DNA from: a virus
IMG/VR virus record: IMGVR_UViG_3300032050_000011
Direction: 5' to 3' (one strand)
Length of the DNA stretch: 64,000 bases
The first letter of the stretch is position 1. Every line of letters starts with the position of its first letter. The translations under genes were made by a program, and so were the position numbers. Shown piece after piece: positions 10,148 to 60,143 of the stretch. Below the pieces are notes generated by a model. It worked only from the letters and a program-made list of their open reading frames with translations, made no database searches and was not told the DNA's origin.

Positions 10148-10864
10148 TTACGGTTTTTTACTTTTTGCTTTTTCAGCCTTTTCTTCTGCTCGTATCATCA
10201 TATCTTCTGGATTTCCAGTTTTTGCACGAATTGAATCCATGCGGATTCTTCCTTTGCCACTAGCCCCTCTGTGTTGAGGCTCTGACAAAATGGAACCGTC
10301 GTCCGTATTTGATTTTTCAGAATCTTTTTTAGACTTTGTAAGAGCCCATTGGCCATTTGGAAAAGAAATTAGGACCTCTTCGCTCTTCTTAAGCTTCATT
10401 TCTTTTTTAGCAGAATCTTCGTCTTTATCTTCGCCATGTTTCTTTTCGTTGTGACGATCAAGCGCTTCAGCTATAAGCTTCTTATCTTCTTTCTCGTCCG
10501 GATGCTTATCTTCTTTCTTCTTGACATTTACACCACCGCCAGAGATACCAGCAGTGATAGAAGAACCAAGATTAGACCCCAAAGGTGCACCCTGTGATCC
10601 AAATTTAGCTAACTGCTCTTTAGACTTCTTCTTTTTTTGACGAAGAGCCGCAAGATCTTCAGCTTCAATTTCTCCATCGCCATCGACATCTAGTTTATGT
10701 CGCTTGCCTTTATGTGAAGATTTACTGTCTTCAGATTTTGCAGTGTTTACCATAGAAGAGCCAACACTCATAGTATCTGAACCATCGCTTAGCATCGCTG
10801 CTTGCTTTTCCAGCGCTTCCCTGGCTTCCAAAAGTTTTTTCTCAAGTTCTAGTAATTTTTTCAT
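10148..10864 (-). CDS. charged putative internal head protein with EF-hand-like loop and NGQW tag
   Basis: LDVDGDGEIEAEDL (DxDxDG) loop; LKKSEEVLISFPNGQWALTKS; several LxK[SQF] sites. Confidence 0.55.
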   Translation of the reverse strand: MKKLLELEKKLLEAREALEKQAAMLSDGSDTMSVGSSMVNTAKSEDSKSSHKGKRHKLDVDGDGEIEAEDLAALRQKKKKSKEQLAKFGSQGAPLGSNLGSSITAGISGGGVNVKKKEDKHPDEKEDKKLIAEALDRHNEKKHGEDKDEDSAKKEMKLKKSEEVLISFPNGQWALTKSKKDSEKSNTDDGSILSEPQHRGASGKGRIRMDSIRAKTGNPEDMMIRAEEKAEKAKSKKP

Positions 10865-10892
10865 ATATTTCTCGTTTTAAGATTATAACTAA

Positions 10893-13073
10893 TTAAGCTT
10901 CAGCTCTTGTGATAGTTATATCATTAAGTACGAAATCAATGCCTTCAACTAAAACAGCTACTAAACTTATGTTGATCGTATTGCCAGTTATCTTAACAGA
11001 TAGATCTTTATAGCCATTTGGTGCGGCAGTAGTAGATACTGTTATTCCTTGTGCAAGATATGTGCTTAATAGCGATGAGGCAATAGATCTAACTTCAGAT
11101 ACAGATATGGTATTCTTTTTACCAACAAATACGTTTTCAAGTTGATTTCTAAAATCAAAACTTAACACGTCTGCAGCATACATAACATTTGCTCTGTTGT
11201 ATACCCAGTTTCCGTCTTTTTGATAAGTGGTATTATCAAGAAGACATCTGATACCACCAGACTGAGGCTGCTCAAAGAAAGTTATTCCGCCTTGTATAGC
11301 TTCGTTGTATTTAACATTAGGATTAAAGTCTTGTACGATATCTTCTTCAGGGGTAGACATCGACTGAGAGGTGTGTCTAATTCCGCTAACATTAAAGAAT
11401 TTAAACGTTAGAGGAGTTCCTATTGGCGAACCGCAACGAGCTCCAGCAAGCATACATGATTGTGCCCAAGGCTGAAACCACTTTATGTTACCCTGAGAAT
11501 CAGTATTCTTAGTGTCCTGAATACATAGCTGTATACGCGGATCAGCAAGTAGACCAGATCTCTCTCTACATGCATCAAAGCTATTTTTATAAGAAAGATA
11601 AGCCTGTCTCTCACTTCTATTTTTTGTAGTACTCATTAAGTTACAGTGAGTCTTAACTGCCTGATGTATACCAAGTATTGTGTAGCTAGACGAGGAATCT
11701 GTTGTGTTATCTGCAATATCACTAGAAGGAGTATCTGAGGCTAGGATTGCATCTCTAGAAAATAGAGGAACCACAGCGCTAACTCTGATCTCTTCGAATG
11801 CCGCTAAAGCTGCAGTTATAGAAGACGTAGTTGTTGCTCCAAGAGCTCCACCAGAAAGTCCAGCTTCACTCATCGCATCAACTAGACCAACAGCAGATTG
11901 ATCATCGATATCTGCAATAGATGAATCTTTAAAAAAGCTTGCCACTTCAGACGCATCTTTTTTGATACGAGCAGGCTTGATAGTTAATGAATTTGAACAT
12001 TTCGCACCAATAGTAACTTCATCAAGTACGCTAGGTGATAATGAGTTATATAGCGTGCTAGTAAGAGAAGCTTTCCAGCCTGGATTAAGATTTATCGCGT
12101 TAACTAGTTGAAGTAGGGTTGGATAAGACTCTTTGCTTATTGAGATCGCTGAGCCAGCATCTAGAATAATTGAACTAGACGTTACTTCTACTGTAGCAGT
12201 TGCACTAGCTCCGCTAAAACCAACCTGCATAACAACGTTACCGCCAATAAGTTCTTGCTCTTCTAGTAAGTCTCTTGTTTGCTTAAGAGTAAGTGTCATT
12301 TTTGATTCTTGAGATGATACTTCAAGACCCTCGGCAATATTCATTGCAGCAAGAGGTGCACCAGTGCCATCTTTAAGTTCTAGTGCTTTACCAGAACCAT
12401 TTCGGCTCGCTAATGGATCTGCATCAATTTCTATAGATAGAGAAGATGCGCCATCAACGCCGCTAACAGTAAATGATACGTCAGCAACAGACCACGTAGC
12501 AGCGTCAGCAGCTAGCGCAGCGTTGTCGGCATAACCGCCTGCAACACTTACAGAACTCTTAACACCGTTAACATAGATATCGAATGATCCAGCAGCAATA
12601 AGTGACTCGTCAAAATCCGCAGATGATTCAGACATTGGCGCAACTTCAGCCGTTTCTTCTGCAGAGAAAGTAATAGTATTTCCACCTATTCCGTGCTCAA
12701 GAGAGCGAACAGTGCCGAATGAGTTTGGCAATGACATAGTGGCTCTAGTGGACGAATTAGTTTTATAAATATAAACAGCCTGTGCACCATTAGGCACAGC
12801 ACCATCAGAAGCTGGAGAAAATAGAAAGTTCATCGCATCTACGATCGGACCAGATCCGTATTTTTGTCTTACTTCAGAAATCTGATTAGGTAAGAAAAAA
12901 TTTCTAGACATATCGGCTTCTTCACTACCAGGTTTACCTCTAGTAGATTCACCAAATATTGCCACTAGACCTACGATACCAAGCGGAAAATTACCACCTA
13001 AATCTATTGTCAACTTAGAATAAGCACCAGGCCTATAAATAGTTGCGCCATTGAAGGATACATTAATCGCCAT
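10893..13073 (-). CDS. tail sheath protein
   Basis: IYRPGAYS N-terminus, LSGG, C-terminal DNTTY...; 726 aa upstream of tubes. Confidence 0.9.
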   Translation of the reverse strand: MAINVSFNGATIYRPGAYSKLTIDLGGNFPLGIVGLVAIFGESTRGKPGSEEADMSRNFFLPNQISEVRQKYGSGPIVDAMNFLFSPASDGAVPNGAQAVYIYKTNSSTRATMSLPNSFGTVRSLEHGIGGNTITFSAEETAEVAPMSESSADFDESLIAAGSFDIYVNGVKSSVSVAGGYADNAALAADAATWSVADVSFTVSGVDGASSLSIEIDADPLASRNGSGKALELKDGTGAPLAAMNIAEGLEVSSQESKMTLTLKQTRDLLEEQELIGGNVVMQVGFSGASATATVEVTSSSIILDAGSAISISKESYPTLLQLVNAINLNPGWKASLTSTLYNSLSPSVLDEVTIGAKCSNSLTIKPARIKKDASEVASFFKDSSIADIDDQSAVGLVDAMSEAGLSGGALGATTTSSITAALAAFEEIRVSAVVPLFSRDAILASDTPSSDIADNTTDSSSSYTILGIHQAVKTHCNLMSTTKNRSERQAYLSYKNSFDACRERSGLLADPRIQLCIQDTKNTDSQGNIKWFQPWAQSCMLAGARCGSPIGTPLTFKFFNVSGIRHTSQSMSTPEEDIVQDFNPNVKYNEAIQGGITFFEQPQSGGIRCLLDNTTYQKDGNWVYNRANVMYAADVLSFDFRNQLENVFVGKKNTISVSEVRSIASSLLSTYLAQGITVSTTAAPNGYKDLSVKITGNTINISLVAVLVEGIDFVLNDITITRAEA

Positions 13074-13126
13074 ACTTTCTCCTATTGCGTCATTATTGCT
13101 TTAATCATTATAACATGCATATTTAG

Positions 13127-13372
13127 TTAAATACTAACACCATATAATTTAAGGGCCCTATCAAACTGTTCCATGGTGGCTTCTGATTCTAGCCCCCTGG
13201 CCTTAAAGTCAGCAGCCAATATTTCTTTTTTATGTATAGGTGGTATAAGATCTTTTCTTTGTGAAAACCAGACATCAAACTTCACTCTCTTCTGAGCTAG
13301 TCCTTTCGCTGAAGAGGCGGCATGACGCTCTAGTTCCATTTTTTTTATCTCAGCTTTCAAATTATCATTCAT
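13127..13372 (-). CDS. hypothetical virion-module protein
   Basis: Coupled ORF in structural operon. Confidence 0.6.
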   Translation of the reverse strand: MNDNLKAEIKKMELERHAASSAKGLAQKRVKFDVWFSQRKDLIPPIHKKEILAADFKARGLESEATMEQFDRALKLYGVSI

Positions 13373-14058
13373 ACATCGCTCCGATACTGACTTATGTTTG
13401 TAACTACTTCTTCTATATCGCCATCTGACATATTAATGTCGCTGTTCGTAGTAGCACCTATATCTAGCTCTAGTACTGGCTCTACATATTGATCGCCCTC
13501 AAGATAGTTCTGGACTGTGCATCTAAATCTTATCCATCTAGACCAGACGTTATCAGCCATATACTTGCTCTCTTTATTGTACTCAGAGGCTCTAAATGTA
13601 TATAATTGCAGACCAAGATTATACCCAGCCATCTTTTCTTTATAGAGAATATAGTTTAGTATATAGTAAAGCCAAAGAACATGATCCTTAGACTTATCGG
13701 CATGTATCCCTATATCTAATGAAACGCTAGAGACACCAGTCAACATCTCAGAGTTCTCGCCAGAACCAAAATAATCTGAAACGGCAGCCCTGCTCTCATC
13801 CTCACTCTCATCTGCAAGATGTATCGTAAAAGAAGGCACTTTAGTAGGGTCAAAGGACCATGCCTGTAGTACAGGTATTTTTGTAGTAGTAAACCAATTA
13901 TATATCTTGTCTATGTGTGCTTGACCATAGGACGCCTGCATTTCATTTCTAAGAAACTGTGCAAATATGCAATCAAATGCAGCTCTGTTATTTTTTAGGT
14001 TAGCTATTCCTAGCTGTACAAGTCTTTGGAGAGCAACTTCTGACATAACAAAAGCCAT
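13369..14058 (-). CDS. tail completion/neck protein (putative)
   Basis: PSFTIHLADESE motif; position just upstream of sheath. Confidence 0.5.
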   Translation of the reverse strand: MAFVMSEVALQRLVQLGIANLKNNRAAFDCIFAQFLRNEMQASYGQAHIDKIYNWFTTTKIPVLQAWSFDPTKVPSFTIHLADESEDESRAAVSDYFGSGENSEMLTGVSSVSLDIGIHADKSKDHVLWLYYILNYILYKEKMAGYNLGLQLYTFRASEYNKESKYMADNVWSRWIRFRCTVQNYLEGDQYVEPVLELDIGATTNSDINMSDGDIEEVVTNISQYRSDV

Positions 14059-14061
14059 AGA

Positions 14062-14784
14062 TCATCCTCCGTATTGTGCCATAATGTAGCGTATGGCATC
14101 GTCTATTCTGTCCTGGAGCTGATTATTTATCTGCTCTAGCTTTTCAGTCATATCGGCCTTTTTAGCAGGCCTTACCCATTTTGAATTAGGATCTTGCTTA
14201 TCGCTTGCGGTTCTAAATTGAGTTGCAACAGACTTTGAATTATCATATGTGTATTCATGCTGCGGCACAGGTAGCGCCTCTATTGTGTCTATAGACTCTG
14301 TAGGATCACTGGATCCGCCTCTTTGCTTTTCAAGTCTTGCCTGCTTGTCTGCCTTTAATTGCAGTCTTTGCTTATTGATTTGTTTTATTGCGTTTTCTAT
14401 AGTTTTTGGCATTGAGCTTTCGCTAGATCTTTCGCGCATAGGTATTTTTTTATATCTAGAGCCATCATGGGCCATTTTTGCATTAGATAGTAGTTTTGGC
14501 AACATAGGGAACGGCGGTTCCGAAAAGTCAGTTTTTCCAGATAGTGTAGTTATCTTAAACAGATTTCCATCGCGTATCGCCATAAGCTCTTGTACAAATT
14601 TATGAGAGTTATGGTCTCCTCCGTCTATAACAGCCTCTTCTAGAGCATCAGCTACCATATCTATTACAGCTTCTCTTACATTATCAGATGCACTATCGCA
14701 AATGCTTTCAGCCTCATCTAGAGAAAAGCCTTTTGCCATCAGTCTGTGTTTTAAATTTTCTAACTCATGACCTACATCTAGCAT
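14062..14784 (-). CDS. putative neck/virion morphogenesis protein
   Basis: Position; FRTASDKQDPNSKW motif resembles phage neck-region proteins. Confidence 0.45.
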   Translation of the reverse strand: MLDVGHELENLKHRLMAKGFSLDEAESICDSASDNVREAVIDMVADALEEAVIDGGDHNSHKFVQELMAIRDGNLFKITTLSGKTDFSEPPFPMLPKLLSNAKMAHDGSRYKKIPMRERSSESSMPKTIENAIKQINKQRLQLKADKQARLEKQRGGSSDPTESIDTIEALPVPQHEYTYDNSKSVATQFRTASDKQDPNSKWVRPAKKADMTEKLEQINNQLQDRIDDAIRYIMAQYGG

Positions 14785-16295
14785 TAGCGTGCCTTTTTAA
14801 TTATTCTGGCTTTCATGTCACATAGGAAGTTAGATTTTTCTAGATCTGTCCATTCTTTGTCAAATGTTATAGATATTTGACCTTTATTATCTATTTCTAT
14901 TTTTGGTCTAGGTAAGTACATGTATTCATTTTCGTAGACCTTTTTTGGATCTATCTTTTTAGATTGTACGACATCTACTTTAGAGGGTTTTTTAGAAAGT
15001 TCATCTACTTTCTCTTGCAGTTCTAACAACCTAGACTCTAGATCTTCTATTTCTTTGCCAGCATCTTGGTTTAGTTTGTTGTGCTTATCTACGACAGTTA
15101 GTAGCGAATTCTCTAGCTTATCAAATAGCGCCATTATCTTAGACTCTACTTGCTGAAGGTCTACCGCAACGCCATTGCGTATCTCTTTTCGCATATTTTC
15201 TACTTCAGTGTAGATATTGGCAAGATTGTGTTTTCGATAATTATCTGCAAGTTGCTCTAGTCCGCCATATATAGCGTCATCTGAAAGTTTTTCATCGTCT
15301 AGTATGTCGAATACTTTTTCATCTTCATCTGAGTACCACTCGAATACAGACATGACATCTGCACAGAGCTGAGGCAGTGACTTATTAGTAAATTGATGTA
15401 TTACTTTATGGCCATCACTTATACGACCAGAATACACATCATTCATGTGTTTTCTTAGGCTTATAGTATAGGAATCTATCTTGACATCTCTAAAATCCTC
15501 ATCACTCATATCTTTAACGGCAGTGCTAAGCATTCTGAAGCAGCCATTACCTATGAGCTTCAGTGCTTCGCCATGACTTATGTCAAATGTAGCAGTTCGC
15601 TGATTATCACCACGAAGTATATTTTTATTTAGTTTCTCTAATATAACTAGATCTTGTAGTTTGCTGGATTTTTTTAAGGCAGAGTGCGCATACATTTCTA
15701 GCCCTACTCTGCAGCAATCCCGCAGTTCCCAGTCTAATAGACTATGAAGAGGTGCAAACTGCAGATCTTTAAGTTCATGTGTATCTTTTGGTTTTCCGTC
15801 AAAAGAATCTACTAGAAATACTTTAGAGTCATTACCGTTTATCTTAGCATGACCAATTTCATTTAGATCTCCAGCGTCTAGTCCTGTCTCTTCTTTAAGT
15901 TCTCTTTTTGCTGCTTGGACAAAATCTTCACCGGGATCAACGTGCCCTCCTGGCGTTTGCCATTTACCATCGTTTCCAATGCCAACAAGAATATGCCCAC
16001 TATCGTCAGTAACAACAAGACCTACCCCCTGTCCTCTATAATATTGCTCAAATGATTTTTTAAGTTTCTTTTTAGATTTGCGCTCTGTTTTTTCGCCCTT
16101 GCCATGTTTTTCATGGTGCTCGCTAGTCCAATCGCCGCCTCTATTTTTGTTTTTACTTTCTGGCGCATCTGAATTTGAAGAGTATTTTGCGGCTACACTT
16201 TTAGGTGGACATCCACGAGCCTGAGTGCACTTGCCTTTCCCATGAAGGATCTGCATCATAAATCTATATTGTTTTTTACTGGCTGCTTGAGGCAT
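14784..16295 (-). CDS. Nudix hydrolase domain protein with coiled-coil C-terminus (probable virion protein)
   Basis: Nudix box GGHVDPGEDFVQAAKRELKEETGL; start moved to MPQAASKK (SD GGAG, TATAAT at 16323-16328). Confidence 0.8.
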   Translation of the reverse strand: MPQAASKKQYRFMMQILHGKGKCTQARGCPPKSVAAKYSSNSDAPESKNKNRGGDWTSEHHEKHGKGEKTERKSKKKLKKSFEQYYRGQGVGLVVTDDSGHILVGIGNDGKWQTPGGHVDPGEDFVQAAKRELKEETGLDAGDLNEIGHAKINGNDSKVFLVDSFDGKPKDTHELKDLQFAPLHSLLDWELRDCCRVGLEMYAHSALKKSSKLQDLVILEKLNKNILRGDNQRTATFDISHGEALKLIGNGCFRMLSTAVKDMSDEDFRDVKIDSYTISLRKHMNDVYSGRISDGHKVIHQFTNKSLPQLCADVMSVFEWYSDEDEKVFDILDDEKLSDDAIYGGLEQLADNYRKHNLANIYTEVENMRKEIRNGVAVDLQQVESKIMALFDKLENSLLTVVDKHNKLNQDAGKEIEDLESRLLELQEKVDELSKKPSKVDVVQSKKIDPKKVYENEYMYLPRPKIEIDNKGQISITFDKEWTDLEKSNFLCDMKARIIKKAR

Positions 16296-16341
16296 AGTAC
16301 TCCAAATATCTCTTGCCCTTACATTATATCTTAAATGCTGG

Positions 16342-17136
16342 CTAGAGCTCCTTACCATCCGGCTTAAATAAAAAATCTCGCTTAACCATAATATGCTGAG
16401 GCAATCGTTTAGCTACTTTTTGACCATTGACCATCTGCTGCGTGGCGCGTATCTCATGCATGTTCTGCATTACATTATACACAGGATTCGCGGAATATGT
16501 TATAGATAGCACTTCACCTATATCTTCTATGCTATCATAGCTAGGAGCTTTTCCTGCGACCCAGACTATATTGCCATTAACTATAGTAAAATCAACATCT
16601 TGCACATACTTCTTAAGTGCGCCATTAACTACGGACGATATATCGAAAACTCTTATTATTGGATACTTGACGCTGGTTGCTCCACTTGTTCCGTCATATT
16701 GTCTCAGGTCAGTTAGACGTATCTGAAAATCAGGGCACAATAACTTATCAAATATATTGAAGTCAGCCTGATTGCCATCTGGATACTCGGTAGGGAACGT
16801 TATCACCGCTGTCCCTATTTCCCAGACTCCTTGGACTTCAAATAGTTTTTCTAGTGAATTATTAGTAAAAACACCAAATATCTCTTTTTCTTGTATATAT
16901 ATTATCTGACTATTGTCGCAAAATGCACAATCTGGATCGTGGTTGTTATCGTCTAGACTTTTCATGTTAGGGCATGGCGCTGCCATGCGATGCACAAAGC
17001 GTATGCCTCTGTTTTGAACTATCTGATCCCAGGATTCGCCTCTGATGCTTATATCAGTTATAAGATCAGGCATCATAGATGGATATGACTTGGCTGTTTT
17101 AGGATACTGCTGATTTGGTTTATCTAGTGGCGACAT
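16342..17136 (-). CDS. putative head-closure/neck protein
   Basis: CP..DPDCAFC Cys cluster at N-terminus; position upstream of neck and sheath genes. Confidence 0.5.
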   Translation of the reverse strand: MSPLDKPNQQYPKTAKSYPSMMPDLITDISIRGESWDQIVQNRGIRFVHRMAAPCPNMKSLDDNNHDPDCAFCDNSQIIYIQEKEIFGVFTNNSLEKLFEVQGVWEIGTAVITFPTEYPDGNQADFNIFDKLLCPDFQIRLTDLRQYDGTSGATSVKYPIIRVFDISSVVNGALKKYVQDVDFTIVNGNIVWVAGKAPSYDSIEDIGEVLSITYSANPVYNVMQNMHEIRATQQMVNGQKVAKRLPQHIMVKRDFLFKPDGKEL

Positions 17137-17151
17137 TAGATGCCTCTTATC

Positions 17152-17286
17152 TTATTTAGTTTTTACTTTATATAGATGATCGATATGTGGATGAACTTCA
17201 AGCTCATGAATCTCACCCGCTTGAAAAGGCTGTTCAGTCTTCGCTAAGCTCCACTGACCATTATATAAGTAGGTAACTTTTTCCAT
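17152..17286 (-). CDS. 44-aa NGQW-tag microprotein
   Basis: MEKVTYLYNGQWSLAKTEQP...KVKTK*; TGATAAAAT 7 nt upstream (leaderless); not in ORF track. Confidence 0.7.
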   Translation of the reverse strand: MEKVTYLYNGQWSLAKTEQPFQAGEIHELEVHPHIDHLYKVKTK

Positions 17287-17307
17287 AGCTTATATTTTAT
17301 CAGACTG

Positions 17308-17997
17308 CTAGTCTGAGATACCAAACTTTATACGCATTATCTTCTCTTCTCGCGGTGAAAGAGTTTTCAGTATTATCTTTAGGTTACGTGCTATATCTTC
17401 TGTATCTAGCTTGTCGGCACTGAATTCTATGCTAGACTTATGCAGTCTATCTAGTAGACTTCTGTCTTCTTCTGAATTAGGACTACTGTCTAGTGATAGT
17501 GGTATCTTAGCTATCTCTAGCAGATCTTTTAACTTATCTTCTTTCATGTTCATAAGTTTACTAAGTTCTTCTAGATTAGGTTCTTTGCCATATAGACGAA
17601 CATGCTGACTCATGATCTGAAATATTTTATTTACACTCTCTACTAAATGCACTGGCAGTCGAACAGTTCTTCCAGTGTCTGCTATGGCTCTAGTAATAGA
17701 CTGACGTATCCACCATGTTGCATAAGTGCTAAATCTATAGCCACGCTTATACTCAAATTTCTCTACGGCCTTCATGAGGCCAAGATTTCCCTCTTGTATA
17801 AGATCTAGCAGATCCATGCCGCTATAGGTATATTTCTTAGCTATAGAGACTACTAGTCGCAGATTTGACTCTACTAATCGCTGCTTGGCTGCCTCATCGC
17901 CTTCAAAAGCGAGCTTAGCAAAGTAGAGTTCCTCTTTAAGAGTCAGCATCGGTATAGCACCCATCTGCTCTAAATAAATCTTTAGTCTATTGCTCAT
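17308..17997 (-). CDS. RpoD-like sigma-70 factor lacking region 1.1 and region 4.2
   Basis: [47 protein letters not shown]; stops at RIKFGISD before the -35-binding helix-turn-helix. Confidence 0.9.
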
Positions 17998-18056
17998 GAA
18001 ATGATTATACCGATTAGCCTACATGCTGCTTGTATGCCTTTACTTTTTAGACTATT

Positions 18057-18689
18057 TTATTTGTGGATTTTAAACTTTCCTGGTGCAACCAGAATCTCAT
18101 CCTCTCCGTATGCAGACTGCTGCTGTTCTTTGGCGCTAGATCCCCAGTCTTCGTCTGGCTCGTTTGGCCCAAGAGCAGCCCCATCAGGCTCATGCAGTCC
18201 ACCTCTGTGTCCATACATCTTAGGCATACTATGTATGTCATCTTCAGGAACCCACGCGCTCGAGAAGTCGCCTGGCTTAGCATCTGCTCCGAAACTAGCA
18301 TTGTGTGAAAAACCTGCAGCAATACCTGGAGTCCATGACCAACTTGTCATTTCATCGTTATGATAGTGATCGCCCTTATTGCGCCTAGCATAATTTTCAG
18401 CACTATTGTCGCCTCTATGTAGCAAAAACTCTAGTTTGTTAGTTATTGGATTTTTTCTATATTGAGCTAGTCTCATTAATTTATTAAGAGCTCTAGCTCT
18501 CATGTTGCCGCTCATGCGAGGAATATCCTGCTTATCTACACTACTAGTAACATCACCAGTCACCCATCCTTGCACACTATATCTATCTTTGTTAGATATA
18601 TCCTTATCTGGGTTAAACGGAATTTTCTTCTGTCTAGATCCTTTCTCGAGTACCCATTGTCCGTTATGTAGATATGATATTTTTTCCAT
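18057..18689 (-). CDS. ADP-ribosyltransferase-like protein with N-terminal NGQW tag
   Basis: R-S-E signature: LHRG, TSWS..A..F, EDEILV. Confidence 0.65.
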   Translation of the reverse strand: MEKISYLHNGQWVLEKGSRQKKIPFNPDKDISNKDRYSVQGWVTGDVTSSVDKQDIPRMSGNMRARALNKLMRLAQYRKNPITNKLEFLLHRGDNSAENYARRNKGDHYHNDEMTSWSWTPGIAAGFSHNASFGADAKPGDFSSAWVPEDDIHSMPKMYGHRGGLHEPDGAALGPNEPDEDWGSSAKEQQQSAYGEDEILVAPGKFKIHK

Positions 18690-18702: not shown

Positions 18703-19008
18703 TTAGTGATCATGCGGATATTTGTCTGATCCAGACTCATCATGTAAAGATAACCAGCTATTAACATGATCGTCGAATTTTTCTTGATGTTTTGGATTGC
18801 TTAGCTGAACATGTGCAGCAGGGTGATCTATTGAAGCATATGCATGTCCGGCATCTTTATGATACTTAATATGTTTTGGTTTAACTTGATTATTGAAATT
18901 AGCTATTGCTCTTTGGAAATGAGCTTCGCTTTTTTGCAATATCTCTTCTATCTGCTCATCGGCCTTCTTTTGAAGTATCCACTTGTCCCAGTCTGGAAAT
19001 TCTTTCAC
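18703..19008 (-). CDS. hypothetical protein (may extend upstream to ATA at 19047, IEKLSYLNEQ)
   Basis: LQKK and LQKS sites; in-frame upstream degenerate tag 7 nt after TGGTAGAAT. Confidence 0.55.
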   Translation of the reverse strand: MKEFPDWDKWILQKKADEQIEEILQKSEAHFQRAIANFNNQVKPKHIKYHKDAGHAYASIDHPAAHVQLSNPKHQEKFDDHVNSWLSLHDESGSDKYPHDH

Positions 19009-19054
19009 GTGATGCTCCTGTTCATTTAAGTAGCTCAGTTTTTCTATAGTCTAT

Positions 19055-37873: not shown

Positions 37874-37958
37874 GTAAAACATTATACTTTGTAATAGGGC
37901 TTACTTGACTAAATATATGATATAATTAAGTTATTATAACTTCTTAAAAGTGGGGGTT

Positions 37959-38348
37959 ATGGGACGTGGCAAGAAAGATTCACCAGAAGACTGGAAAAGA
38001 TACAAGAAGCTGGAGCAAGAGAACGAAAAATTAAAAAGAGAAGTTACAAAACTTAGAAAATTAGTAAATTCAAATTGCATAGACCAGCTTGAAGAAAGAG
38101 AAGAGAAGGTAAAGGAAAGTCGCAGTAGAGGTATTGAGATTGAGCCTATAGAGCCTATATGTGAAAATTGTGGCAAAACAGAGTTTAAAAAGATTCAATT
38201 TAAAAGACTAGACGGTGAGTTTGAAATAAAAGTTTGTGCTGTCTGCTCTTACAGAGGTAATCTAAAAAAACTTAAGGTAAAAGATGAGCAAAGAAGTCTT
38301 AAAGATATCAAGCAACGGCCAATGGACTCTGGAGAAGAGCCTCAATAA
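37959..38348 (+). CDS. coiled-coil plus Zn-ribbon protein
   Basis: CENC...CAVC; TGATATAAT upstream. Confidence 0.65.
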   Translation: MGRGKKDSPEDWKRYKKLEQENEKLKREVTKLRKLVNSNCIDQLEEREEKVKESRSRGIEIEPIEPICENCGKTEFKKIQFKRLDGEFEIKVCAVCSYRGNLKKLKVKDEQRSLKDIKQRPMDSGEEPQ

Positions 38349-38907
38349 GGCTTCACTGTTTACTGCAGCTGCACTAGCGGGCATGCTGTCGCAGGATCCA
38401 GGTCAACTAAACACACAGAAAATTCCCTACGCTCCGCAAGATAGCAGTTCAAACGAGCAGGTGAGCCTTCATCCAGATCTTCATCACATTGCTTTCATAG
38501 AAAGTTCTAGTGGTAAAAACAAGAAACATAAGACGGTAAACTACGGATTGAATAGAGGTGATTCAGCTGCTGGCCTAACAGGTCTAATGCCTCATACTAT
38601 TAAAGAGATAGTCGGAAAAAACCCCGACATCAAAGCTAAGTATGGGTCACTCTTAGATAAAGATCATAATGAGATAACCTCATATGTAAACTCGAATGAA
38701 AACGCAGACAAAGAGCTTGCCAACAAACACTGGAGCAGGCTGTCTAGAGTCTTTCCAAGAGATGAACTAAGACGCGTCTATGCCTGGAAGAACGGCGTGA
38801 CGGGCGCAATTAAAGCATCGGATGACCAGGTAAAAAGCCATCCGTATGTTAGAAAATATCTCAACTTAAAATATCAAGAAAGAAGTCCCGCAAATACTAT
38901 AAAATAG
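38284..38907 (+). CDS. lytic transglycosylase (SLT-like) with N-terminal NGQW tag
   Basis: IAFIESS, AAGLTGLMP.T, AWKNG, YV motifs. Confidence 0.7.
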   Translation: MSKEVLKISSNGQWTLEKSLNKASLFTAAALAGMLSQDPGQLNTQKIPYAPQDSSSNEQVSLHPDLHHIAFIESSSGKNKKHKTVNYGLNRGDSAAGLTGLMPHTIKEIVGKNPDIKAKYGSLLDKDHNEITSYVNSNENADKELANKHWSRLSRVFPRDELRRVYAWKNGVTGAIKASDDQVKSHPYVRKYLNLKYQERSPANTIK

Positions 38908-38916
38908 TGCGAGAGA

Positions 38917-40626
38917 TTAACTCTCGCACGATTTACACTCATCGCCTCTACTAGCCATGTCCCCTTTTATAACCGAGCTAGATCTGCAATAATACAGAGT
39001 CTTTACACCGGCTTTCCAGGCATCTATATGTACTTCGTGGAACCATTTAGGATCCGCGTCTGCTGGAAAGAATAGGTTTAAAGACTGGGCTTGATCTATG
39101 AATTTTTGTCTTTGACCTGCTTGTCTAATGATAGATTTCTGATTTATCTCGTATGCAGTCTTAAATACTTCTTTCTCTGATTCAGATAGAAATTTTAACT
39201 GCTGAACCGAACCGTTGTCTACAAGTATTGATCTCCAGGTCTCGTCTGTGTTCTTGCCATATTTGTCTAGTATGACAGCAAGTTCTTTATTCTTTCTGAT
39301 GAATACGCCTTTAGCCGTTTTGTCTGTATAGGCATTTGCTATGATCGGCTCAATACCAGGACTCACATCGCCGGATATGATAGAGTTTGACCTAGTAGGA
39401 GCAACTGCAATAAGATGTGAGTTGTACATTCCAGTTCCTCTGCACCACTCAGGCTCGCCATGTATTTTTGCCATCTTGCGCGATTCATCAACAGCAGACT
39501 CATGTATGTTCTTAAAAACCTCTGCGTTTAGCATCATAGAGTCAAATGAATCAAATGGCAGATTCTTCTGCTGAAGCAGAGTATGCCAACCTAAAACACC
39601 TATGCCAATGGCTCTACCCTTGACGGCTGATCTCACCGAGCGCACGAAGCCTGGCAGATGTCTAGCTCTGTTGATGAACTCATTTAGTACACCATTTAAA
39701 AACTGGACCGTCAGGTTGACGAGATCAGTATTCTTCCACTCATCCCATTTGACTAGATTTATAGACGATAGGCAGCATATAAAACTGTGATCATCGTCTG
39801 TAAACAGAGTAATCTCACTGCAAATATTGGTCATTGATACTTTTAGATTATTATTCTTATAGGCTTGAGGAGCAGAGTTGTTGACTGTATCCTCAAACAT
39901 GATGTAGGGTTCGCCTGTTTCAAGTCTAGTTTTAAGCAGCTCGATCCAGCGTTGTCTTGCTTCTGAATTTCCGTTCTCTACCTTATTCATAAAATCATCT
40001 GAGACAACTGCACACTGATGCAGATTAAGACACTGCCTGTTTACATCACCTTGAGGTCGTCTAATCGACAGGAACTCTTCAAAATCTTTATGTGTAACTC
40101 TTAGGTTAAGAGAGGCTGCTCCGCGACGAACATTACCTTGTGAAGTAGCGATAATAGCTGTATCATAGCATTTTGCCCATGGCACTATACCCTCAGACTT
40201 TCCATTTGATCCGCCTCTAATTAACTCTCCGCGAGCTCTTATTCTATCTAGCGATATTCCTACTCCGCCACCATGCTTTGTAAGCATAGCCATCTCATGT
40301 AGTGATTTATAGATGCCATCTACAGAATCTGGTGTATCAATACCGAAGCAAGATATAGGAAGTCCTCTGTTAGTGCCGAGATTACTGAGCACCGGCGAAG
40401 CAGGGCAAAGCCAGTTCTTGTTGTACATTACGTCAAAAAACCTAGCCTCAAGCTGCTTGTTGTTTATGGCTTCTGCTGCAGCTCTAGCTACTCTTCTATA
40501 CATAGAGCGCGGAGTTTCGCCCTCTAGTAGATAGCCTTTTGAGATAGTAGCGTAGCCTTCTTCGGTCATCCAGTCTGGCGCTTCACCTTTTGATTTCAAC
40601 TCTTCTAGCTTAGTCGTTTTCTGCAT
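38917..40626 (-). CDS. nrdA: ribonucleotide reductase class I alpha subunit (short, no ATP cone)
   Basis: PISCF, TNICSEI, GIGVLG, APTRSNS, KTLYY, C-terminal CxxC; start moved to MQKTTKL (SD GGAGG). Confidence 0.95.
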   Translation of the reverse strand: MQKTTKLEELKSKGEAPDWMTEEGYATISKGYLLEGETPRSMYRRVARAAAEAINNKQLEARFFDVMYNKNWLCPASPVLSNLGTNRGLPISCFGIDTPDSVDGIYKSLHEMAMLTKHGGGVGISLDRIRARGELIRGGSNGKSEGIVPWAKCYDTAIIATSQGNVRRGAASLNLRVTHKDFEEFLSIRRPQGDVNRQCLNLHQCAVVSDDFMNKVENGNSEARQRWIELLKTRLETGEPYIMFEDTVNNSAPQAYKNNNLKVSMTNICSEITLFTDDDHSFICCLSSINLVKWDEWKNTDLVNLTVQFLNGVLNEFINRARHLPGFVRSVRSAVKGRAIGIGVLGWHTLLQQKNLPFDSFDSMMLNAEVFKNIHESAVDESRKMAKIHGEPEWCRGTGMYNSHLIAVAPTRSNSIISGDVSPGIEPIIANAYTDKTAKGVFIRKNKELAVILDKYGKNTDETWRSILVDNGSVQQLKFLSESEKEVFKTAYEINQKSIIRQAGQRQKFIDQAQSLNLFFPADADPKWFHEVHIDAWKAGVKTLYYCRSSSVIKGDMASRGDECKSCES

Positions 40627-41638
40627 CGCTACCTCCAAATACATAGTCAATATTCCAATTAGAACTTACACCCTTAGAGTAAGTAGTAACTCTCTGTGCA
40701 AAGAAATCCTGAAACTCTACTCCAGCGCTGAGAGCGTCGAACCACTCCATGCGCTTTATTGCGTCCTTGTCTATATTCTTCCAGTTACTAGAGTAACCTA
40801 GATCCTGAAGCTTAGTGTTAGTTCTATATCTGATGTATTGCTTTAGGTCGTCTTTATCTAGACCCTCAACACCTAGGTTGAACATCTTATCTACTGATAC
40901 GTCGCCAGTAGGACTTTTGAAGCACATATCAATGAAGTCGTCTTCTAGCTTAACAGTAAGTCTTGCAGCCTCATAGATATCTTCTTCTACGGCCTCTTTG
41001 ACGCCTGGATTTTCTTTGCAGTATTCTCTGAATAACCAGCAACCAGCTTCACTATGAAGCGACTCGTCTCTAATAGACCAAGTTACTATTTGACCAACGC
41101 CTTTTAATTTATTAAAGCGAGAAAAGTTTAGTAGGATGGCAAAACTAGAGAACAAGTGTACGCCTTCTGTGAAGGCAGAAAATACAGCGAGTGATCTTGC
41201 TATCTCTTCTTTGCTTGTCTTTATTGCTTTAATATCTTTTAATCTATTTAATTTTGCAACCGTTGCGTCATCTTTAAGAAATGCTGCATAGTCGTCGAGA
41301 CCAAGAGAATCATTGAGATAAGAATAACCCCAGATATGTATCGCCTCCATGCCTGCAAAAGTATTTGCCATCATGCAAACTTCTGGTTTAACAAACCATT
41401 TAGCAACTTTTCTAGACCAATAGTCTTCTACATGAATTTCTGCTTGAGTAAAGCCTTTAAGGACGTTGCCAACAACCGATCTCTCTACTTCATTAAGAGA
41501 AGTTTTCCAATCGTTTATGTCCCCTGCCATACTTACTTCTGTTGGAAGCCAGTGAGCCTGCTGTTGTTTTTCAAAATACTCGAAGGCTTTTGGATACTCG
41601 AAAGGTTTATATACTTCTCGTTTCTGAGTAAGAGACAT
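40610..41638 (-). CDS. nrdB: ribonucleotide reductase class I beta subunit
   Basis: EAIH..Y, EGVHLFSSF, RDESLH, DFF...VTTY. Confidence 0.95.
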   Translation of the reverse strand: MSLTQKREVYKPFEYPKAFEYFEKQQQAHWLPTEVSMAGDINDWKTSLNEVERSVVGNVLKGFTQAEIHVEDYWSRKVAKWFVKPEVCMMANTFAGMEAIHIWGYSYLNDSLGLDDYAAFLKDDATVAKLNRLKDIKAIKTSKEEIARSLAVFSAFTEGVHLFSSFAILLNFSRFNKLKGVGQIVTWSIRDESLHSEAGCWLFREYCKENPGVKEAVEEDIYEAARLTVKLEDDFIDMCFKSPTGDVSVDKMFNLGVEGLDKDDLKQYIRYRTNTKLQDLGYSSNWKNIDKDAIKRMEWFDALSAGVEFQDFFAQRVTTYSKGVSSNWNIDYVFGGSDAEND

Positions 41639-51804: not shown

Positions 51805-51839
51805 AAACAATAACAAATTCGATATAAAAAAGAGGTTTT

Positions 51840-52169: not shown

Positions 52170-52170
52170 C

Positions 52171-53668: not shown

Positions 53669-53824
53669 GATGTGGTTGCTAGTTATTCAAATGAGTCACG
53701 GATATGTGGAGCAAGGCTTCTTCATTGAAAGAGATAACTGTATAAAAATGGGTAAAGAGATTGTTGGCAAGTCTAAGTATATGACCTATGAATGCAAGAG
53801 GCGAAAAGTCAAAATTAAATAATA

Positions 53825-54394: not shown

Positions 54395-54487
54395 ATATGT
54401 CCCTTGACACTGCCACGGCAGCATACTATATCTAGCATTATACCTGGTCTTGCTTTGGCAGATTCGATATAAAATCAAGAGGTTAAG

Positions 54488-54781
54488 ATGAGTAAAACAA
54501 ATGAAGAACTTGTAAGAGAATTTTTAGAAAAAGGTGGAAAAATAGAAGTGCTACCACCTGCTGACAATAATCAGGTAAATCCTATATCTAGTATTACAAG
54601 TCAGCCAGTTAAACTTCTCTCGCTAGAAGAGGCAGAGTCCCTATACGGCGAAAAAACAGAAAGAAAAAGTAAGGCTAAAAAGCCTGACCTAAAAAACATA
54701 AACATGAATCTAATACCCGATCATTTGAAGAAATACATATTGTCGAAGTTCGACAATGATATTACAAAGGAGAACGAATGA
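54488..54781 (+). CDS. SutA-like motif protein
   Basis: EFLEKGGKIEVL; also INMNLIPDHLK. Confidence 0.5.
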   Translation: MSKTNEELVREFLEKGGKIEVLPPADNNQVNPISSITSQPVKLLSLEEAESLYGEKTERKSKAKKPDLKNINMNLIPDHLKKYILSKFDNDITKENE

Positions 54782-55935: not shown

Positions 55936-55973
55936 CCAATACGCTTTTAAGCCTGTAGAATTATAGGCAATTC

Positions 55974-56012
55974 GGCCGCATGGTTTATCCCTTTGTCCAT
56001 GCGGCCTTTTTT
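55974..56012 (+). terminator. intrinsic terminator
   Basis: GGCCGCATGG...CCATGCGGCC plus T6. Confidence 0.75.
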
Positions 56013-56024
56013 AAATGAGGTTTT

Positions 56025-57134
56025 ATGAATAATGAGATGCTCACTAAAGTAATAAATCTAGTTAATTCAACTAATGAAATGATAAAACTTAGAAACGAAG
56101 AAATACAACTTTATCATAAACTTACTAGGGCTATCATTGGTCAAAAACTATTAAAAGACCAAAAATCTAAAGAAGTTAAATCTATCGAACTACCCGTAAA
56201 GACACAAAATATTCTGAAAGAGCACGGCGTAAGATTTGGTTGGCCACATGGAACAAGCATTAAATTATATGACTCTGGTGCAGTAGAAGTATTAGCAAGT
56301 ATAAAAAATACAACTACTTATATATTCGTAATTGAAGATAATACTATATTAATTCCAGCTTAGGTAAGTACCATAATGGCAAGAAAAAAGAAAGTTCTAA
56401 GAGAATACAACGTCTGCAAGTGCTTAGTAACTAACATACAGTCAGTTACAGGGCATAAAACACACGAGATACTATCATATATGCATTCTCTAGCAGAGAA
56501 CTGCATAAAAGAGAATGGATTAAGAGTAGATAAATATGAAGAAGTGTCCTACTACGAGCCGACTATAATTGACTACTCCTATTATCCTAACACTAAGATA
56601 TATCTAGCCGTATCTATTAGTAGAATTTCTAATCTAATAGAAGAAGACAATTCCGACGACTTAGTACAGTGCATGTATGTAGACTACAAGTTCTACACGC
56701 CTTCTTCTATTAAAAAACTAACACAAGAACAGTTTGACGATATAGTTATCGATGCAATGCTGACTGACTTTTCTATGGACTTTGATCCGCCTGCTATAAA
56801 GAAAAGAAAGACGCTTGTTCAACTAAAGAAAGAAGAAAAAGAGCGTGAGGCTAAAGAAAAAGTAAGACAAATTAATTATCTAAAAAAAGAACTAAAAAGT
56901 CTTCTTAGGCAAACTCTAGAATATAAAGCAAATGCTGTAGATGACAGTTCCACTAAATCTACAAGAAACTACTATGTTAGACAATTTAAAAAAAGTGAAA
57001 GAGAAATAAACTATGTAATTAATCAGCTAAAAAACCTAGGCGATAAAACACATGAGGTGCTTTTGACCCCAACAGATTCGATAAATAATCAAACGGAGGG
57101 CAAATGTCAAACCAAAGTCAAACTCAAGCTCTAG
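56025..57134 (+). CDS. hypothetical proteins (56025-56363, 56376-57134)
   Basis: ORF track. Confidence 0.6.
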
Positions 57135-58585
57135 ATCTCACAGAAGAAGAGAAACAACATCTTGAAGAACTAAAGCGCAAAGCCAAAGAAGCTGGCATGC
57201 GATCTCGTGAAGAAGCCCTAGAAGCTGCGAAGCGCGAAATGGTGGGTGCAGACGAACAAAAGCAATGTTTGCAAACCGCAATATTTCAGACGACTAAAAC
57301 AAATCCATTCATGGGCTCTGTACTTCAGTGTATGAACATGACCTATAGCCACGTGATTCCAACTGCTGGTGTTATGTTTAATGCTGAGTTGAAGCGCTGG
57401 GATATGCTGTTAAATCCATATTTTTTCTGTCGTAAACTAAATGAAGTACAACGTAAAGCAGTTTTATTGCATGAGCTCTATCATATTACTCACAAGCATC
57501 CGCTACGTGTTCCATTCATGAAACTATCAAGCCATAAGCGTCAGCTCATGAACATCGCTATGGACATGGCAATTAACCAATTCATTAAAGATCTTCCAGC
57601 CGGATGCCCTCAGTGTCCGCCGCGTAAGCCAGGCCAATTCGCGTCCTTGCCATGCGAAAATCCAGACTGCTGTGGCTCAGGTATCGACATCAAAGATTTC
57701 TTCGACACAGACAAAAATGGCAAAATAGTTCAATGGGAAGCACGTCAGCCAGCTGAGCACTATTACGAAAAGCTAATGGAAAGATTTCAGGATCCAGATC
57801 CGGAAGATCAAGACAATAAGGATGGCAACGCAGGTGGTGGTGCAAGCAGCGGCGATCTTCCAAAAACAACTGATGTTCACCACTGGGATGGCTCAAGTGA
57901 AGAAAAAGATATGCTTGAAGCAACTGAAGATCTAGTTAAGCGTGCAATGATTAAATGCAAGTTTGGCCACGATGAGCTGCCAGGTCATATCAGAGAACTA
58001 CTTGACCATATTAAGCAGCGCAGAGCAGAGCTAGACTACAAACGTCTGATTCTTCAGGCGATGAAGTCCTCGCTTCCTGCCAACTTTCGCGTCAAATCAT
58101 GGACTCGTAAGAGCAAACGCTATGGCGCAAAAGCACCAGGCAATAAGAATGGAGAAGAACCTAAGCTAGATAATTTTATCGACACATCAGGATCTATCTC
58201 CATCGAAGAAGCAAATAACTTCCTAGATATCGTAGATGAGTTCTTGCGTGTTGGCGCTAGGAAGTGTACACTCAATATGTTTCATACTTCTAACTATTAT
58301 CGCGAAGACTACAAGCGAGGTCAGCGTATCAAGCGTGAAGATATTCAGTCAGGCGGAACATGCCTAGAAGATTCATTCCGCGTGATTGCAAAATCTAGAC
58401 CTGACCTAGCGATTATCTTAACCGATGGCTACTACAGCCATGTTGATACAAAGAAGCTGGTAGGCCCAAATGGCAGGTTTCCAAATACTGTGTTTATCAT
58501 CAGCAAGGATGGTACTACGGATCATCCGTTTAAAAATGAACCGTGGGCAAAGACAGTACAGATTCCAGGCAGTGTGAAGCGATGA
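57104..58585 (+). CDS. HExxH metallopeptidase-like plus VWA domain protein (DUF2201-type), MoxR partner
   Basis: HELYH, NIAMD.AIN; DTSGS, GGT, LTDG MIDAS motifs. Confidence 0.85.
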   Translation: MSNQSQTQALDLTEEEKQHLEELKRKAKEAGMRSREEALEAAKREMVGADEQKQCLQTAIFQTTKTNPFMGSVLQCMNMTYSHVIPTAGVMFNAELKRWDMLLNPYFFCRKLNEVQRKAVLLHELYHITHKHPLRVPFMKLSSHKRQLMNIAMDMAINQFIKDLPAGCPQCPPRKPGQFASLPCENPDCCGSGIDIKDFFDTDKNGKIVQWEARQPAEHYYEKLMERFQDPDPEDQDNKDGNAGGGASSGDLPKTTDVHHWDGSSEEKDMLEATEDLVKRAMIKCKFGHDELPGHIRELLDHIKQRRAELDYKRLILQAMKSSLPANFRVKSWTRKSKRYGAKAPGNKNGEEPKLDNFIDTSGSISIEEANNFLDIVDEFLRVGARKCTLNMFHTSNYYREDYKRGQRIKREDIQSGGTCLEDSFRVIAKSRPDLAIILTDGYYSHVDTKKLVGPNGRFPNTVFIISKDGTTDHPFKNEPWAKTVQIPGSVKR

Positions 58586-59014
58586 GTAACTTTGGCTTAA
58601 ACTTAAGAAGCCACAAATGGCGCTGGACCTATGACGAGCAAGGTACAGACGCCTACAATGTATTGGGTGCACTAGAGTGCACTCTTTATAATTTAAGCAT
58701 AATGGCGCCATTAAATAATTATTGGAATATGGATGAAATGGAGCGTTTTGGTTTTGAGTTTAGCTTCTTAACCAAGCGAAACATAAAGGACAACTGTGGA
58801 CAATAGTAGGATCGCCTTAAAAGGCCTCAGAAAGAACGATCAAGGAGACATAGTCGAGTATGATCTTAGCATAAAATTAAATGAAATAACTGTAATCTCT
58901 ATGGTTAGAGATGAGGCCTATGTATCTATATTTAATGGTCGTTGTTATAGGGTTAGTCATAGTTTTGATGAATTAAAAAGACTAATAGAAAACACAGAAA
59001 CAAGCCAACTGTAG
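58582..59014 (+). CDS. small hypothetical ORFs (58582-58806, 58796-59014)
   Basis: ORF track, overlaps. Confidence 0.5.
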
Positions 59015-59060
59015 CAGTGTCAGAGGCTATTTATAGTAAATTATATGGTATAATATAGGT

Positions 59061-59576
59061 ATGGAAAACACTAAGCTGCTTGATTCTTTACAAGAAATTT
59101 ATGATGACCTAATCTGGCTCGAAGAGCAGGTTGCCTCTGATCTAAATAAGGGGCCCAACTATTGGAAAGACAAGGACCCGGCTAAGTATAAGAAAATGCT
59201 AACAAAATTGCGAAGAGATCGCAAAACACCTGGCCATAAAGAGCGCGGCTATCAGCAGGTTCTTCAGGCTAAGCGGCGTGAAAAAGGTAAGCCTGGCACG
59301 CGTAGCGGCCAAAATGGCAAGAAGGGTCACTCTTCAGGGCATATGAAGACTAAGACAGGTGCTGCAGCGAAGCGCTATGCTTCTGCCGAGAAAAAGCATG
59401 GTAAGAAGATGTCAATGAACCGCAAGAACAACAATAAAGGATACGCCTCGGGCAACGTAAAGCTTATATCTCAGAAATACAATAAGGGCGACGAAAAGTA
59501 TTCTAGAAAAGCACCTGAAAATAATCTTAAAAGTAAATTAAAAAAACTAAAAAAAGCATTACTTGATTATCTTTAA
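59061..59576 (+). CDS. very basic protein with degenerate HNH-like motif (leaderless)
   Basis: K/R/G-rich; NRKNNNKGYASGNVKLIS; TGGTATAAT 6 nt before ATG. Confidence 0.6.
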   Translation: MENTKLLDSLQEIYDDLIWLEEQVASDLNKGPNYWKDKDPAKYKKMLTKLRRDRKTPGHKERGYQQVLQAKRREKGKPGTRSGQNGKKGHSSGHMKTKTGAAAKRYASAEKKHGKKMSMNRKNNNKGYASGNVKLISQKYNKGDEKYSRKAPENNLKSKLKKLKKALLDYL

Positions 59577-59582
59577 TTAAAT

Positions 59583-60143
59583 ATGGAAAAACTACACATA
59601 TCTGAAAATGGTCAGTGGCAGCTAAATAAAGTTTTACTAAATTCAATAAGTCCTGCGGACGCAGAAGTTAAGAATCCAGAAGCAGACAGAAGAAATATAT
59701 CGGTGGTAAACAAGCAGCTGCCAAACGGTCTGATCTATAAGCAGTTTAAAGTACGCGGAAGCAACAGCAACGCTAGAATTCATACGTTATATGAGAAAAA
59801 TAACCCCGAACCTGTAAGCATAATGAATACATCAGATTCTCAAGATGTCGGCAACGACAAAATCTATAAGAATACAGTTAACTGGGCGTCAACTATACCA
59901 GAGCATCAAAAAAAAGGTCTTGGTAGACAGCTATATTTGGCCGCACTAATGCATTTGGGCACAATACACTCTGATGATAACATATCTCCGCATATACATA
60001 AACTCTGGGGCAGTCTATCAAAGATACCTGGGCTTTCGGTGCGACTGAGTGCTGGAGATAGTGAACTGCATAGACACAGAGCAGAACTAGATCCAAGCAA
60101 AAAACTAGATCTTAATTCGCTATTTCATAGTATAAATCTCTAA
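59583..60143 (+). CDS. GNAT acetyltransferase-like protein with N-terminal NGQW tag
   Basis: PEHQKKGLGRQLY acetyl-CoA motif, SD..S....LW. Confidence 0.7.
   Translation: MEKLHISENGQWQLNKVLLNSISPADAEVKNPEADRRNISVVNKQLPNGLIYKQFKVRGSNSNARIHTLYEKNNPEPVSIMNTSDSQDVGNDKIYKNTVNWASTIPEHQKKGLGRQLYLAALMHLGTIHSDDNISPHIHKLWGSLSKIPGLSVRLSAGDSELHRHRAELDPSKKLDLNSLFHSINL

Follow-up and report, generated by a model that had tools for sequence, protein, structure and literature searches.

A short N-G-Q-W peptide shared by unrelated proteins of an uncultured SPO1-like phage is a candidate portable prohead-loading tag

Proteins that a phage delivers from its capsid are its first strike against host defences, and a defined signal for loading proteins into a capsid is, to our knowledge, known essentially only for T4-like phages, in which the internal proteins carry a short N-terminal capsid-targeting sequence (CTS) that is removed by the prohead protease, and which package and inject the ADP-ribosyltransferase (ART) Alt. 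Short peptides likewise tether proteins inside HK97-fold shells in the C-terminal capsid-targeting tail of the HK97 protease and the cargo-loading peptides of encapsulins. Here we analysed 64,000 nt of the IMG/VR virus record IMGVR_UViG_3300032050_000011 (the window, bases 81008-145007 of one 165,836-bp phage contig with 38.7% G+C), in which unrelated proteins share a peptide tag of 15-18 residues with the consensus E-h-h-x-h-x-x-N-G-Q-W-x-L-x-K. We propose, with a probability of about 0.65, that this tag is a portable prohead-loading module, and that its terminal LxK would be cut by the prohead protease, releasing the cargo in the capsid, which it would leave with the DNA.

The tetrapeptide NGQW occurs eight times in the whole genome, five times within the window and three times outside it, always in credible open reading frames (ORFs). 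All five window copies were found where the initial annotation had placed them, in the following genes (strand in brackets):

10148-10864 (-): 238-aa charged protein, encoded beside the sheath gene and tagged internally at 10334-10378 (NGQW 10346-10357)
17152-17286 (-): 44-aa ORF, made up of the tag at 17239-17286 (NGQW 17251-17262) and 28 further residues
18057-18689 (-): putative ART-like protein of 210 aa, with an N-terminal tag at 18642-18689 (NGQW 18654-18665)
38284-38907 (+): 207-aa protein with the tag at 38284-38337 (NGQW 38314-38325), an Ala/Gly-rich segment and a transglycosylase domain at about 38419-38898
59583-60143 (+): 186-aa protein (g191) with an N-terminal tag at 59583-59630 (NGQW 59607-59618) and a domain with GNAT motif A (weak call)

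The genome-wide NGQW scan added three further N-terminal copies, which belong to paralogous proteins of no recognisable family:

Genome 38540-40858, outside the window: paralogous trio with three N-terminal tags

From the six-frame composition 0.185 copies of NGQW would be expected, and over 60 second-order Markov simulations the mean was 0.15 and the highest count two, compared with the eight observed. Among the copies, N, G, Q, L and K are encoded by different synonymous codons, with variation at almost every tag position, which argues for selection at the level of the peptide and not of the DNA, and on this ground a DNA-level element was rejected. This variation also bears on the explanation that the conserved stretch is a recombination patch moving accessory cassettes between slots, the peptide being incidental. 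Tagged genes do act as mobile cassettes, for instance in a hot spot between the helicase and lysin genes, which is occupied here by the trio, in relative L100 by two other tagged genes and in a third phage by a g191 homolog. Nucleotide identity across the tags is, however, largely no higher than the peptide predicts, and the peptide is kept down to 64% MCP (major capsid protein) identity and stands also inside and at the ends of ORFs, so that we regard a recombination patch as extremely improbable.

Over 59 distinct contexts the tag is N-terminal in 30, internal in 22 and C-terminal in seven. It is thus not strictly N-terminal, internal and C-terminal copies being frequent in relatives. Alignment of 22 N-terminal tags showed an invariant Glu seven residues ahead of the Asn with hydrophobic positions between them, and, following N-G-Q-W, a nearly invariant Leu and usually a Lys. 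When sampled without bias, N-terminal tags end in [LIVM]-x(1-3)-K in 18 of 18 cases, in agreement with the LxK end noticed initially, and a Lys follows the tag in 18/18 N-terminal versus 3/6 C-terminal cases (Fisher p ~0.01). In both AF2 models the tag folds into a hairpin of two strands with N-G at the turn, although the confidence of this part is low.

The MCP of this phage is at most 30% identical to that of any GenBank phage, the nearest being SPO1-like Bacillus phages, and 64-93% identical to those of 80 uncultured IMG/VR contigs, several of which are complete at 150-177 kb. Ten complete or large relatives each carry one to five copies of the tag, and it is borne by eight proteins in this genome and by more than ten cargo families in the clade. 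Running a degenerate DNA pattern for E-x6-NGQW-x-L-x-K on IMG/VR matched at least 107 stretches, and among the matches listed the true tags are all on contigs sharing genes with this genome, the others being one unrelated protein family and chance matches. The confinement of the tag to this clade argues for a phage-encoded partner over a universal host one. Within the clade, tagged genes are spread over all modules, lying beside the protease gene, downstream of the MCP gene, between the sheath and tube genes and by an SbcC-like gene. We rejected as coincidental a family of 270-300-aa phage proteins with NGQW in the context ...E-G-[VI]-Q-H-K-V-NGQW-[IL]-L-Y-K, present on L118, L119, L123, L130 and about 15 other loci, whose contigs share no genes with the clade and which is a caveat for searches by motif alone. 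A likeness of the tag to the C-terminus of the scaffold was also discarded, being found only in the closest relatives in a region that fits a conserved helical motif. Searching literature full text for the tag motif matched only unrelated papers.

The evidence that carries our reading comes from the prohead protease, encoded in the head module outside the window (genome 700-19,400, with terminase, portal, protease, small protein, scaffold and MCP in this order):

Genome 10969-12534 (L003:2970-4535), outside the window (-): prohead protease, by PHROG 1028 and gene order

PHROG 1028 (head maturation protease) is matched by 45 of 45 protease N-domains (best E 2e-14), hhalign of the protease to SPO1 gp3.2 gave 91% probability, and the gene order portal, protease, scaffold, MCP is the same as in SPO1; a Pfam scan of the protease gave no match, T4 S77 included. 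The enzyme is by these comparisons of the SPO1/kayvirus type, apparently cutting after Lys (inferred P1 Lys), and not T4-like, T4 being the example that the initial annotation drew on.

Five unrelated cargo families alternate between two arrangements: in one the cargo follows the tag, in the other it is part of the prohead-protease ORF, as an insert or as an added end. For the transglycosylase, the counterpart of the cargo part of 38284-38907 (29-32% identity, E 1e-12 to 1e-19) is an insert that at least 23 relatives have in their protease ORF, located between the protease domain and a C-terminal mimic of the MCP N-arm, which is followed by a zinc ribbon. The alignment begins at the L-E-K of the tag, corresponding to L-D-K or M-E-K in the fusions, and continues in both tagged protein and fusions with an Ala/Gly-rich hydrophobic stretch. 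The other exchanging families are a bona fide GNAT domain (Pfam Acetyltransf_7 in 6/6 members, best E 2e-6), the ART-like domain, a HEAT-repeat protein of about 500 aa (45% identity, E 3e-131) and a C-terminal His/Trp-rich domain. The K of the tag's LxK aligns with [LM]-x-K at the fusion junctions, and the 702-aa protease of one relative carries GNAT and ART-like inserts in tandem with L-N-K between them. Several relatives have a short protease gene with a tagged gene immediately behind it, and tagged genes also occur directly downstream of the MCP gene. The five-family exchange indicates that the tag is interchangeable with covalent attachment to an enzyme working inside proheads.

The same exchange has to be weighed against the idea that the tag docks proteins to the neck, the tail tube lumen or the baseplate, the transglycosylase being a tail-associated lysin. 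Tail-associated peptidoglycan hydrolases are common, and three window copies stand in the tail/neck block, in which PHROG and Pfam scans found contractile-tail genes (the PHROG 279 sheath at 10893-13073, a NUDIX protein and a 'virion structural protein'), beside the sheath and the 'virion structural protein'. Yet the same cargo domains are inserted in a protease active inside proheads, tagged genes lie beside the protease and MCP genes in relatives, and LxK matches sites in head proteins, which together make tail docking rather improbable.

As a separate observation on the protease, its C-terminus copies the mature N-terminal arm of the MCP and continues with a CxxC...CxxC zinc ribbon, an arrangement kept in all relatives. 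MCP residues 27-56 and protease residues 438-467 are 70% identical, including the L-x-K/A site (a slash marks the inferred cut), and the copied arm may be a means of building the protease into the shell.

The cut site was approached through the head proteins themselves. L27, K29 and A30 of the MCP (LNK/A) are invariant in 45 relatives, and this site aligns with LNK23/A24 of SPO1 gp6.1 and with VVK24/S25 of Staphylococcus phage 812. About 23 residues are understood to be removed from the MCP of Listeria phage A511 and of Twort-like phages. Our placing of the MCP cut takes phage 812 as its basis, whose deposited 439-residue chain (9row) begins at S25 of the 463-residue protein, directly after the aligned Lys. 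Furthermore, the scaffold contains ten [LIVM]xK[ASG] sites where 1.24 are expected (z 8.6, about 8-fold, the top protein genome-wide), several of its L-x-K-S sites being invariant across the clade, and the protease contains eight where 2.6 are expected, with no genome-wide excess of the motif. The end of the tag would thereby match the cut motif of MCP and scaffold, at the level of the motif only. The additional LxK[S/A] sites that had been pointed out in the NUDIX and 238-aa proteins did not survive this treatment, as they are not above shuffled expectation.

Related junctions were found in distant phages, in which the cargo domains occur as polyproteins. Short members of the ART-like family begin with the tag, whereas about two thirds of the best 150 ART-like matches are 400-2,400 residues long and contain the domain up to four times, and among these long proteins 13 also have a NUDIX module, 14 a transglycosylase and 12 a g191-like module. 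The giant proteins of 1,000-2,400 aa string together NUDIX, ART-like, g191-like and transglycosylase modules, each preceded by a linker ...E-x-D-L-x-K/[GSA] that is in register with the tag LxK of the window proteins. One of them, P0008, holds four ART-like and two g191-like modules and shares with the window NUDIX protein its place upstream of the sheath gene, a slot in which a polyprotein of 1,617 aa lies within the structural operon. P0096 joins a g190-like part (residues 30-143) to an ART-like part (189-329), g190 being the neighbour of the tagged g191 here. Since the modules are concatenated elsewhere with Lys-ended junctions, the three 'effector' genes of the window form part of one module set. 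Among the giant polyproteins of 1,300-2,400 aa (P0008, P0009, P0011, P0013, others, and L221:2692-7545), one of which comes from a phage with 63% G+C, we observed NUDIX, up to four ART-like, g191-like or GNAT, transglycosylase and VTC domains, with ...A-S-E-x-D-L-x-K linkers.

The cut motif and the polyproteins also speak to a reading in which the LxK-terminated peptide is a protease-removable propeptide only, keeping the protein inactive until cut or extending substrate recognition, and targeting is achieved in another way. N-terminal tags always end in the inferred cut motif, and the polyprotein linkers carry L-x-K without NGQW, so that cutting does not need NGQW. As a propeptide, however, a C-terminal tag would be left without a role, since no cargo follows it and in some cases the Lys is missing, and the replacement of the protease domain by NGQW as N-terminal partner in five families fits tethering; a pure propeptide is thus unlikely in our view. 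The proposal of the initial annotation, a portable packaging tag that ends in a protease site, has strong and independent backing from the comparison with relatives, namely from the protease exchange, the MCP site match, the scaffold enrichment and the polyprotein linkers.

The cargo proteins are characterised to different degrees. The AF2 model of the 207-aa protein has a pLDDT of 80 (above 90 in the transglycosylase domain) and gave VIA Z scores of 12.1 to MltC and 12.0 to Slt70, with an rmsd of 2.5-2.9 A over 128-134 residues. All its top structural matches are transglycosylases, with Z 9.9 for the T7 core protein 9jyy_I. Over 24 sequences E73 of the catalytic E-S is invariant and S74 is kept in at least 90%; the protein matches no Pfam family at E <= 0.01, the SLT profile included. 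The modelled fold, alpha-helical and lysozyme-like, confirms the initial assignment as a family-1 lytic transglycosylase. A separate M15 peptidase gene adjoins the tagged trio and is the likelier endolysin, so the tagged transglycosylase would not be required in this function. Directly behind the tag of this protein we also noticed an Ala/Gly-rich hydrophobic segment of 14-16 residues (38338-38400, +), which is kept in the protease fusions and in the polyproteins and might, if the protein is ejected, serve to insert it into a membrane.

The family of the 18057-18689 protein is defined by the pattern ...LLHRG / SW / E-x-E-v-i-V, in which, over 207 domain copies, the R is present in 205, the S in 193, the W in 195 and the two E in 195 and 196. 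A profile search collected 545 representative clusters of this family, sequence and profile searches gave no usable Pfam or PDB match, and the AF2 model of the 210-aa protein (pLDDT 40) was too poor for a structure search. The ART call made initially is thus a putative one, based on the R / S-W / E-x-E pattern. All four members of the g191 family are tagged; GNAT motif A (Q/R-x-x-G-x-G/A) is present, and two of four members match Pfam Acetyltransf_7 below the cutoff (E 0.02-0.04, residues 103-124). Considering in addition the 41% hhalign probability to the true GNAT cargo family, with nothing usable in the PDB by sequence or profile search, the GNAT call for 59583-60143 is a weak one. Homologs of the ART-like and g191 proteins are absent from five complete relatives, which makes both accessory genes.

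The 44-aa ORF, which the initial annotation listed as an unannotated tagged gene, is indeed tagged, but relative L129 has a reading frame of 511 codons (about 504 aa when counted from the start codon) with whose residues 8-49 it shares 57% identity, and it is by this alignment a truncated remnant, the surviving N-terminus of a tagged gene of about 500 aa. For the 238-aa protein no Pfam or PHROG family was found; its homologs in relatives occupy the slot between sheath and tube, with the tag C-terminal in L129. Tagged proteins of relatives include a further type in L021:11509-12954 and L101:1270-2067, where the C-terminal sigma-28-binding end of FlgM directly precedes the tag (Pfam E 2e-7 in L021), which suggests a tagged anti-sigma-like cargo.

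Taken together, the prohead-loading module that we propose would work as follows. The tag peptide probably forms a beta-hairpin around the N-G turn, which would dock the cargo, that is the lytic transglycosylase, the ART-like enzyme, the GNAT-like protein, basic low-complexity proteins and the His-rich trio, to some conserved part of the head during its assembly. The SPO1/kayvirus-type prohead protease would then cut at the following L-x-K and free the cargo inside the capsid, which it would leave together with the DNA when the phage infects a cell. What the sequences show directly is the motif, its confinement to the clade, its modularity, its exchange with protease fusions and the agreement of LxK with conserved sites in head proteins; that the tagged proteins are physically packaged, cut and ejected is what we infer. 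As the receptor of the tag we tentatively put forward the maturation protease, since fusion partners and adjacent genes often interact; the scaffold and the inner face of the MCP are alternatives, and a complex prediction in which the 44-aa tagged protein was combined with the N-domain of the protease, the MCP and the scaffold scored 0.00 and is evidence neither way. By extension, the protease itself might be the cargo carrier of the clade, taking up cargo either as a covalent insert ahead of its capsid-mimicking tail or by docking of the NGQW hairpin, with L-x-K cuts freeing all of it, a view that we offer as speculative.

Several points weigh against prohead loading and lower our confidence in it. 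Five of 20 internal tags lack a following Lys, the hairpin was predicted at a pLDDT of only 40-58, and the receptor is a candidate only. Exchange with protease fusions is evidence of a shared destination and not of targeting by the tag itself, and with a top GenBank MCP match of 30% identity the phage has no close cultured relative. Moreover, the commonest tagged slot in the clade, among the matches listed, is a recombination/replication module, adjoining an SbcC-like gene, and the TATAAT promoter class of the tagged units also precedes replication genes. The initial annotation had placed all tagged genes in TATAAT-class units, and boxes were indeed located at 10882, 37918 and 59046, but since the same class stands ahead of replication genes, it does not discriminate virion genes and late expression does not follow from it.

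These last points lend some weight to the explanation that the tag acts inside the infected cell, either docking proteins to a phage hub that has nothing to do with virions, for instance in replication or recombination, or as a degron for phage ClpP-like proteases. The commonest tagged slot adjoins polymerase as well as SbcC-like genes, and the genome encodes two ClpP-like paralogs, by sequence reading, near whose counterparts some tagged genes lie in relatives. Internal positions are atypical of Clp degrons, though, and the five-fold protease exchange, the tagged transglycosylase and the match to the MCP and scaffold sites would all be left unexplained, so that we hold a hub or degron function to be quite improbable. 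The genome has its own gene in this slot, outside the window (L001:2923-3777, genome 30922-31776), whose product has lost NGQW but retains ...L-E-K, followed by a Cys/Trp-rich motif found after the tag in relatives, and which has its own TGGTATAAT box.

Further features of the window that flank the tagged genes or concern their transcription are the following:

10882-10887 (-): TATAAT box, preceding the 238-aa gene by 18 nt
14784-16358 (-): 524-aa NUDIX protein (Pfam NUDIX E 8e-18)
17308-17997 (-): phage sigma factor, matched by Pfam sigma-70 regions 1.2, 2 and 3
18703-19008 (-): 101-aa protein with a second, portal-like leader W-D-x-W-I-L...LxK
19009-19047 (-): relic of a decayed tag, upstream of the 101-aa ORF and in its frame, with a stop, then ATA for ATG, and NGQW lost
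37918-37926 (+): extended -10 box TGATATAAT, preceding the transglycosylase gene by 358 nt
59046-59054 (+): extended -10 box TGGTATAAT, preceding the two-gene unit 59061/59583 by 7 nt
59061-59576 (+): 171-aa protein (g190), co-transcribed with the tagged gene and fused to an ART-like module elsewhere

By its position, the window NUDIX protein corresponds to those cargo polyproteins of distant phages that begin with a NUDIX module. Sigma-70 region 4 was not matched by Pfam in the sigma factor, and the -10-only TATAAT or TGnTATAAT boxes before minus-strand genes fit a sigma factor lacking this region. An ORF at 37950-38348 (+) lies between the TGATATAAT box and the transglycosylase gene at 38284, and plus-strand genes around the 59061/59583 unit carry a AACAGATTCGATA-type element instead of TGGTATAAT. 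The relic bears out the initial finding of a decayed in-frame tag upstream of 18703-19008, with a tag-like start. We further observed that the 101-aa protein shares a second N-terminal leader, W-[DN]-x-W-[IL]...L-x-K-[SAG], with the portal and two proteins encoded just downstream of the MCP gene (L003), and the leader is found at the same places in relatives; it may be a portal-like propeptide serving as a second tag.

Overall, our analysis points to an unrelated loading signal in the SPO1-like lineage, which is longer than that of T4, independent of position and exchangeable with fusion to the protease, an enzyme inferred to be Lys-specific. It provides a clade-wide catalogue of likely injected enzymes, comprising transglycosylase, GNAT, ART-like, NUDIX and HEAT-repeat proteins and, in distant phages, polyproteins, and it defines a large ART-like domain family (the 545 clusters) that no profile library recognises. 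If our reading is true, it offers a simple rule by which injected effectors could be recognised in uncultured phages, and the tag would be a small handle, transferable from protein to protein, with which foreign or arbitrary cargo could be packaged into an HK97-fold capsid.

Comparing this system with described ones, the likeness to the T4 CTS (IPI-III, Alt; gp21) lies in a short common peptide on unrelated proteins, with an end that matches the head protease's cut motif in MCP and scaffold (here at the level of the motif), and in a cargo that includes an ART-like enzyme and small basic proteins encoded by scattered, polymorphic genes. The NGQW tag differs in being unrelated in sequence, longer and centred on N-G-Q-W; it is found at N-terminal, internal and C-terminal positions, whereas the CTS is strictly N-terminal, and it is interchangeable with insertion into the protease gene. 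In addition, T4 gp21 (S77) cuts after Glu, while here a cut after Lys (h-x-K) is inferred and protease and MCP are of the SPO1/kayvirus type. Giant phages of the phiKZ/SPN3US type have many head-packaged enzymes processed by one protease at a simple motif (PMC10052503, PMC7411985), as would be the case here, but they belong to a different lineage and cut after Glu, and no single portable hairpin-like tag is known to have been defined for them; the present genome is 166 kb. T7 gp16, an internal core protein whose transglycosylase domain is N-terminal, shares with our 207-aa protein the family-1 transglycosylase fold and, as we propose here, the location in the capsid, ejection and opening of the cell wall, but it is a large core subunit bound to the portal and not a small tagged protein or protease insert. 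The HK97 tail and encapsulin peptides, finally, are C-terminal and extended, bind the shell protein and have no cut site behind them. The NGQW tag thus parallels T4 capsid targeting in function and, by this analogy, would be its independent, sequence-unrelated counterpart in the SPO1-like lineage.

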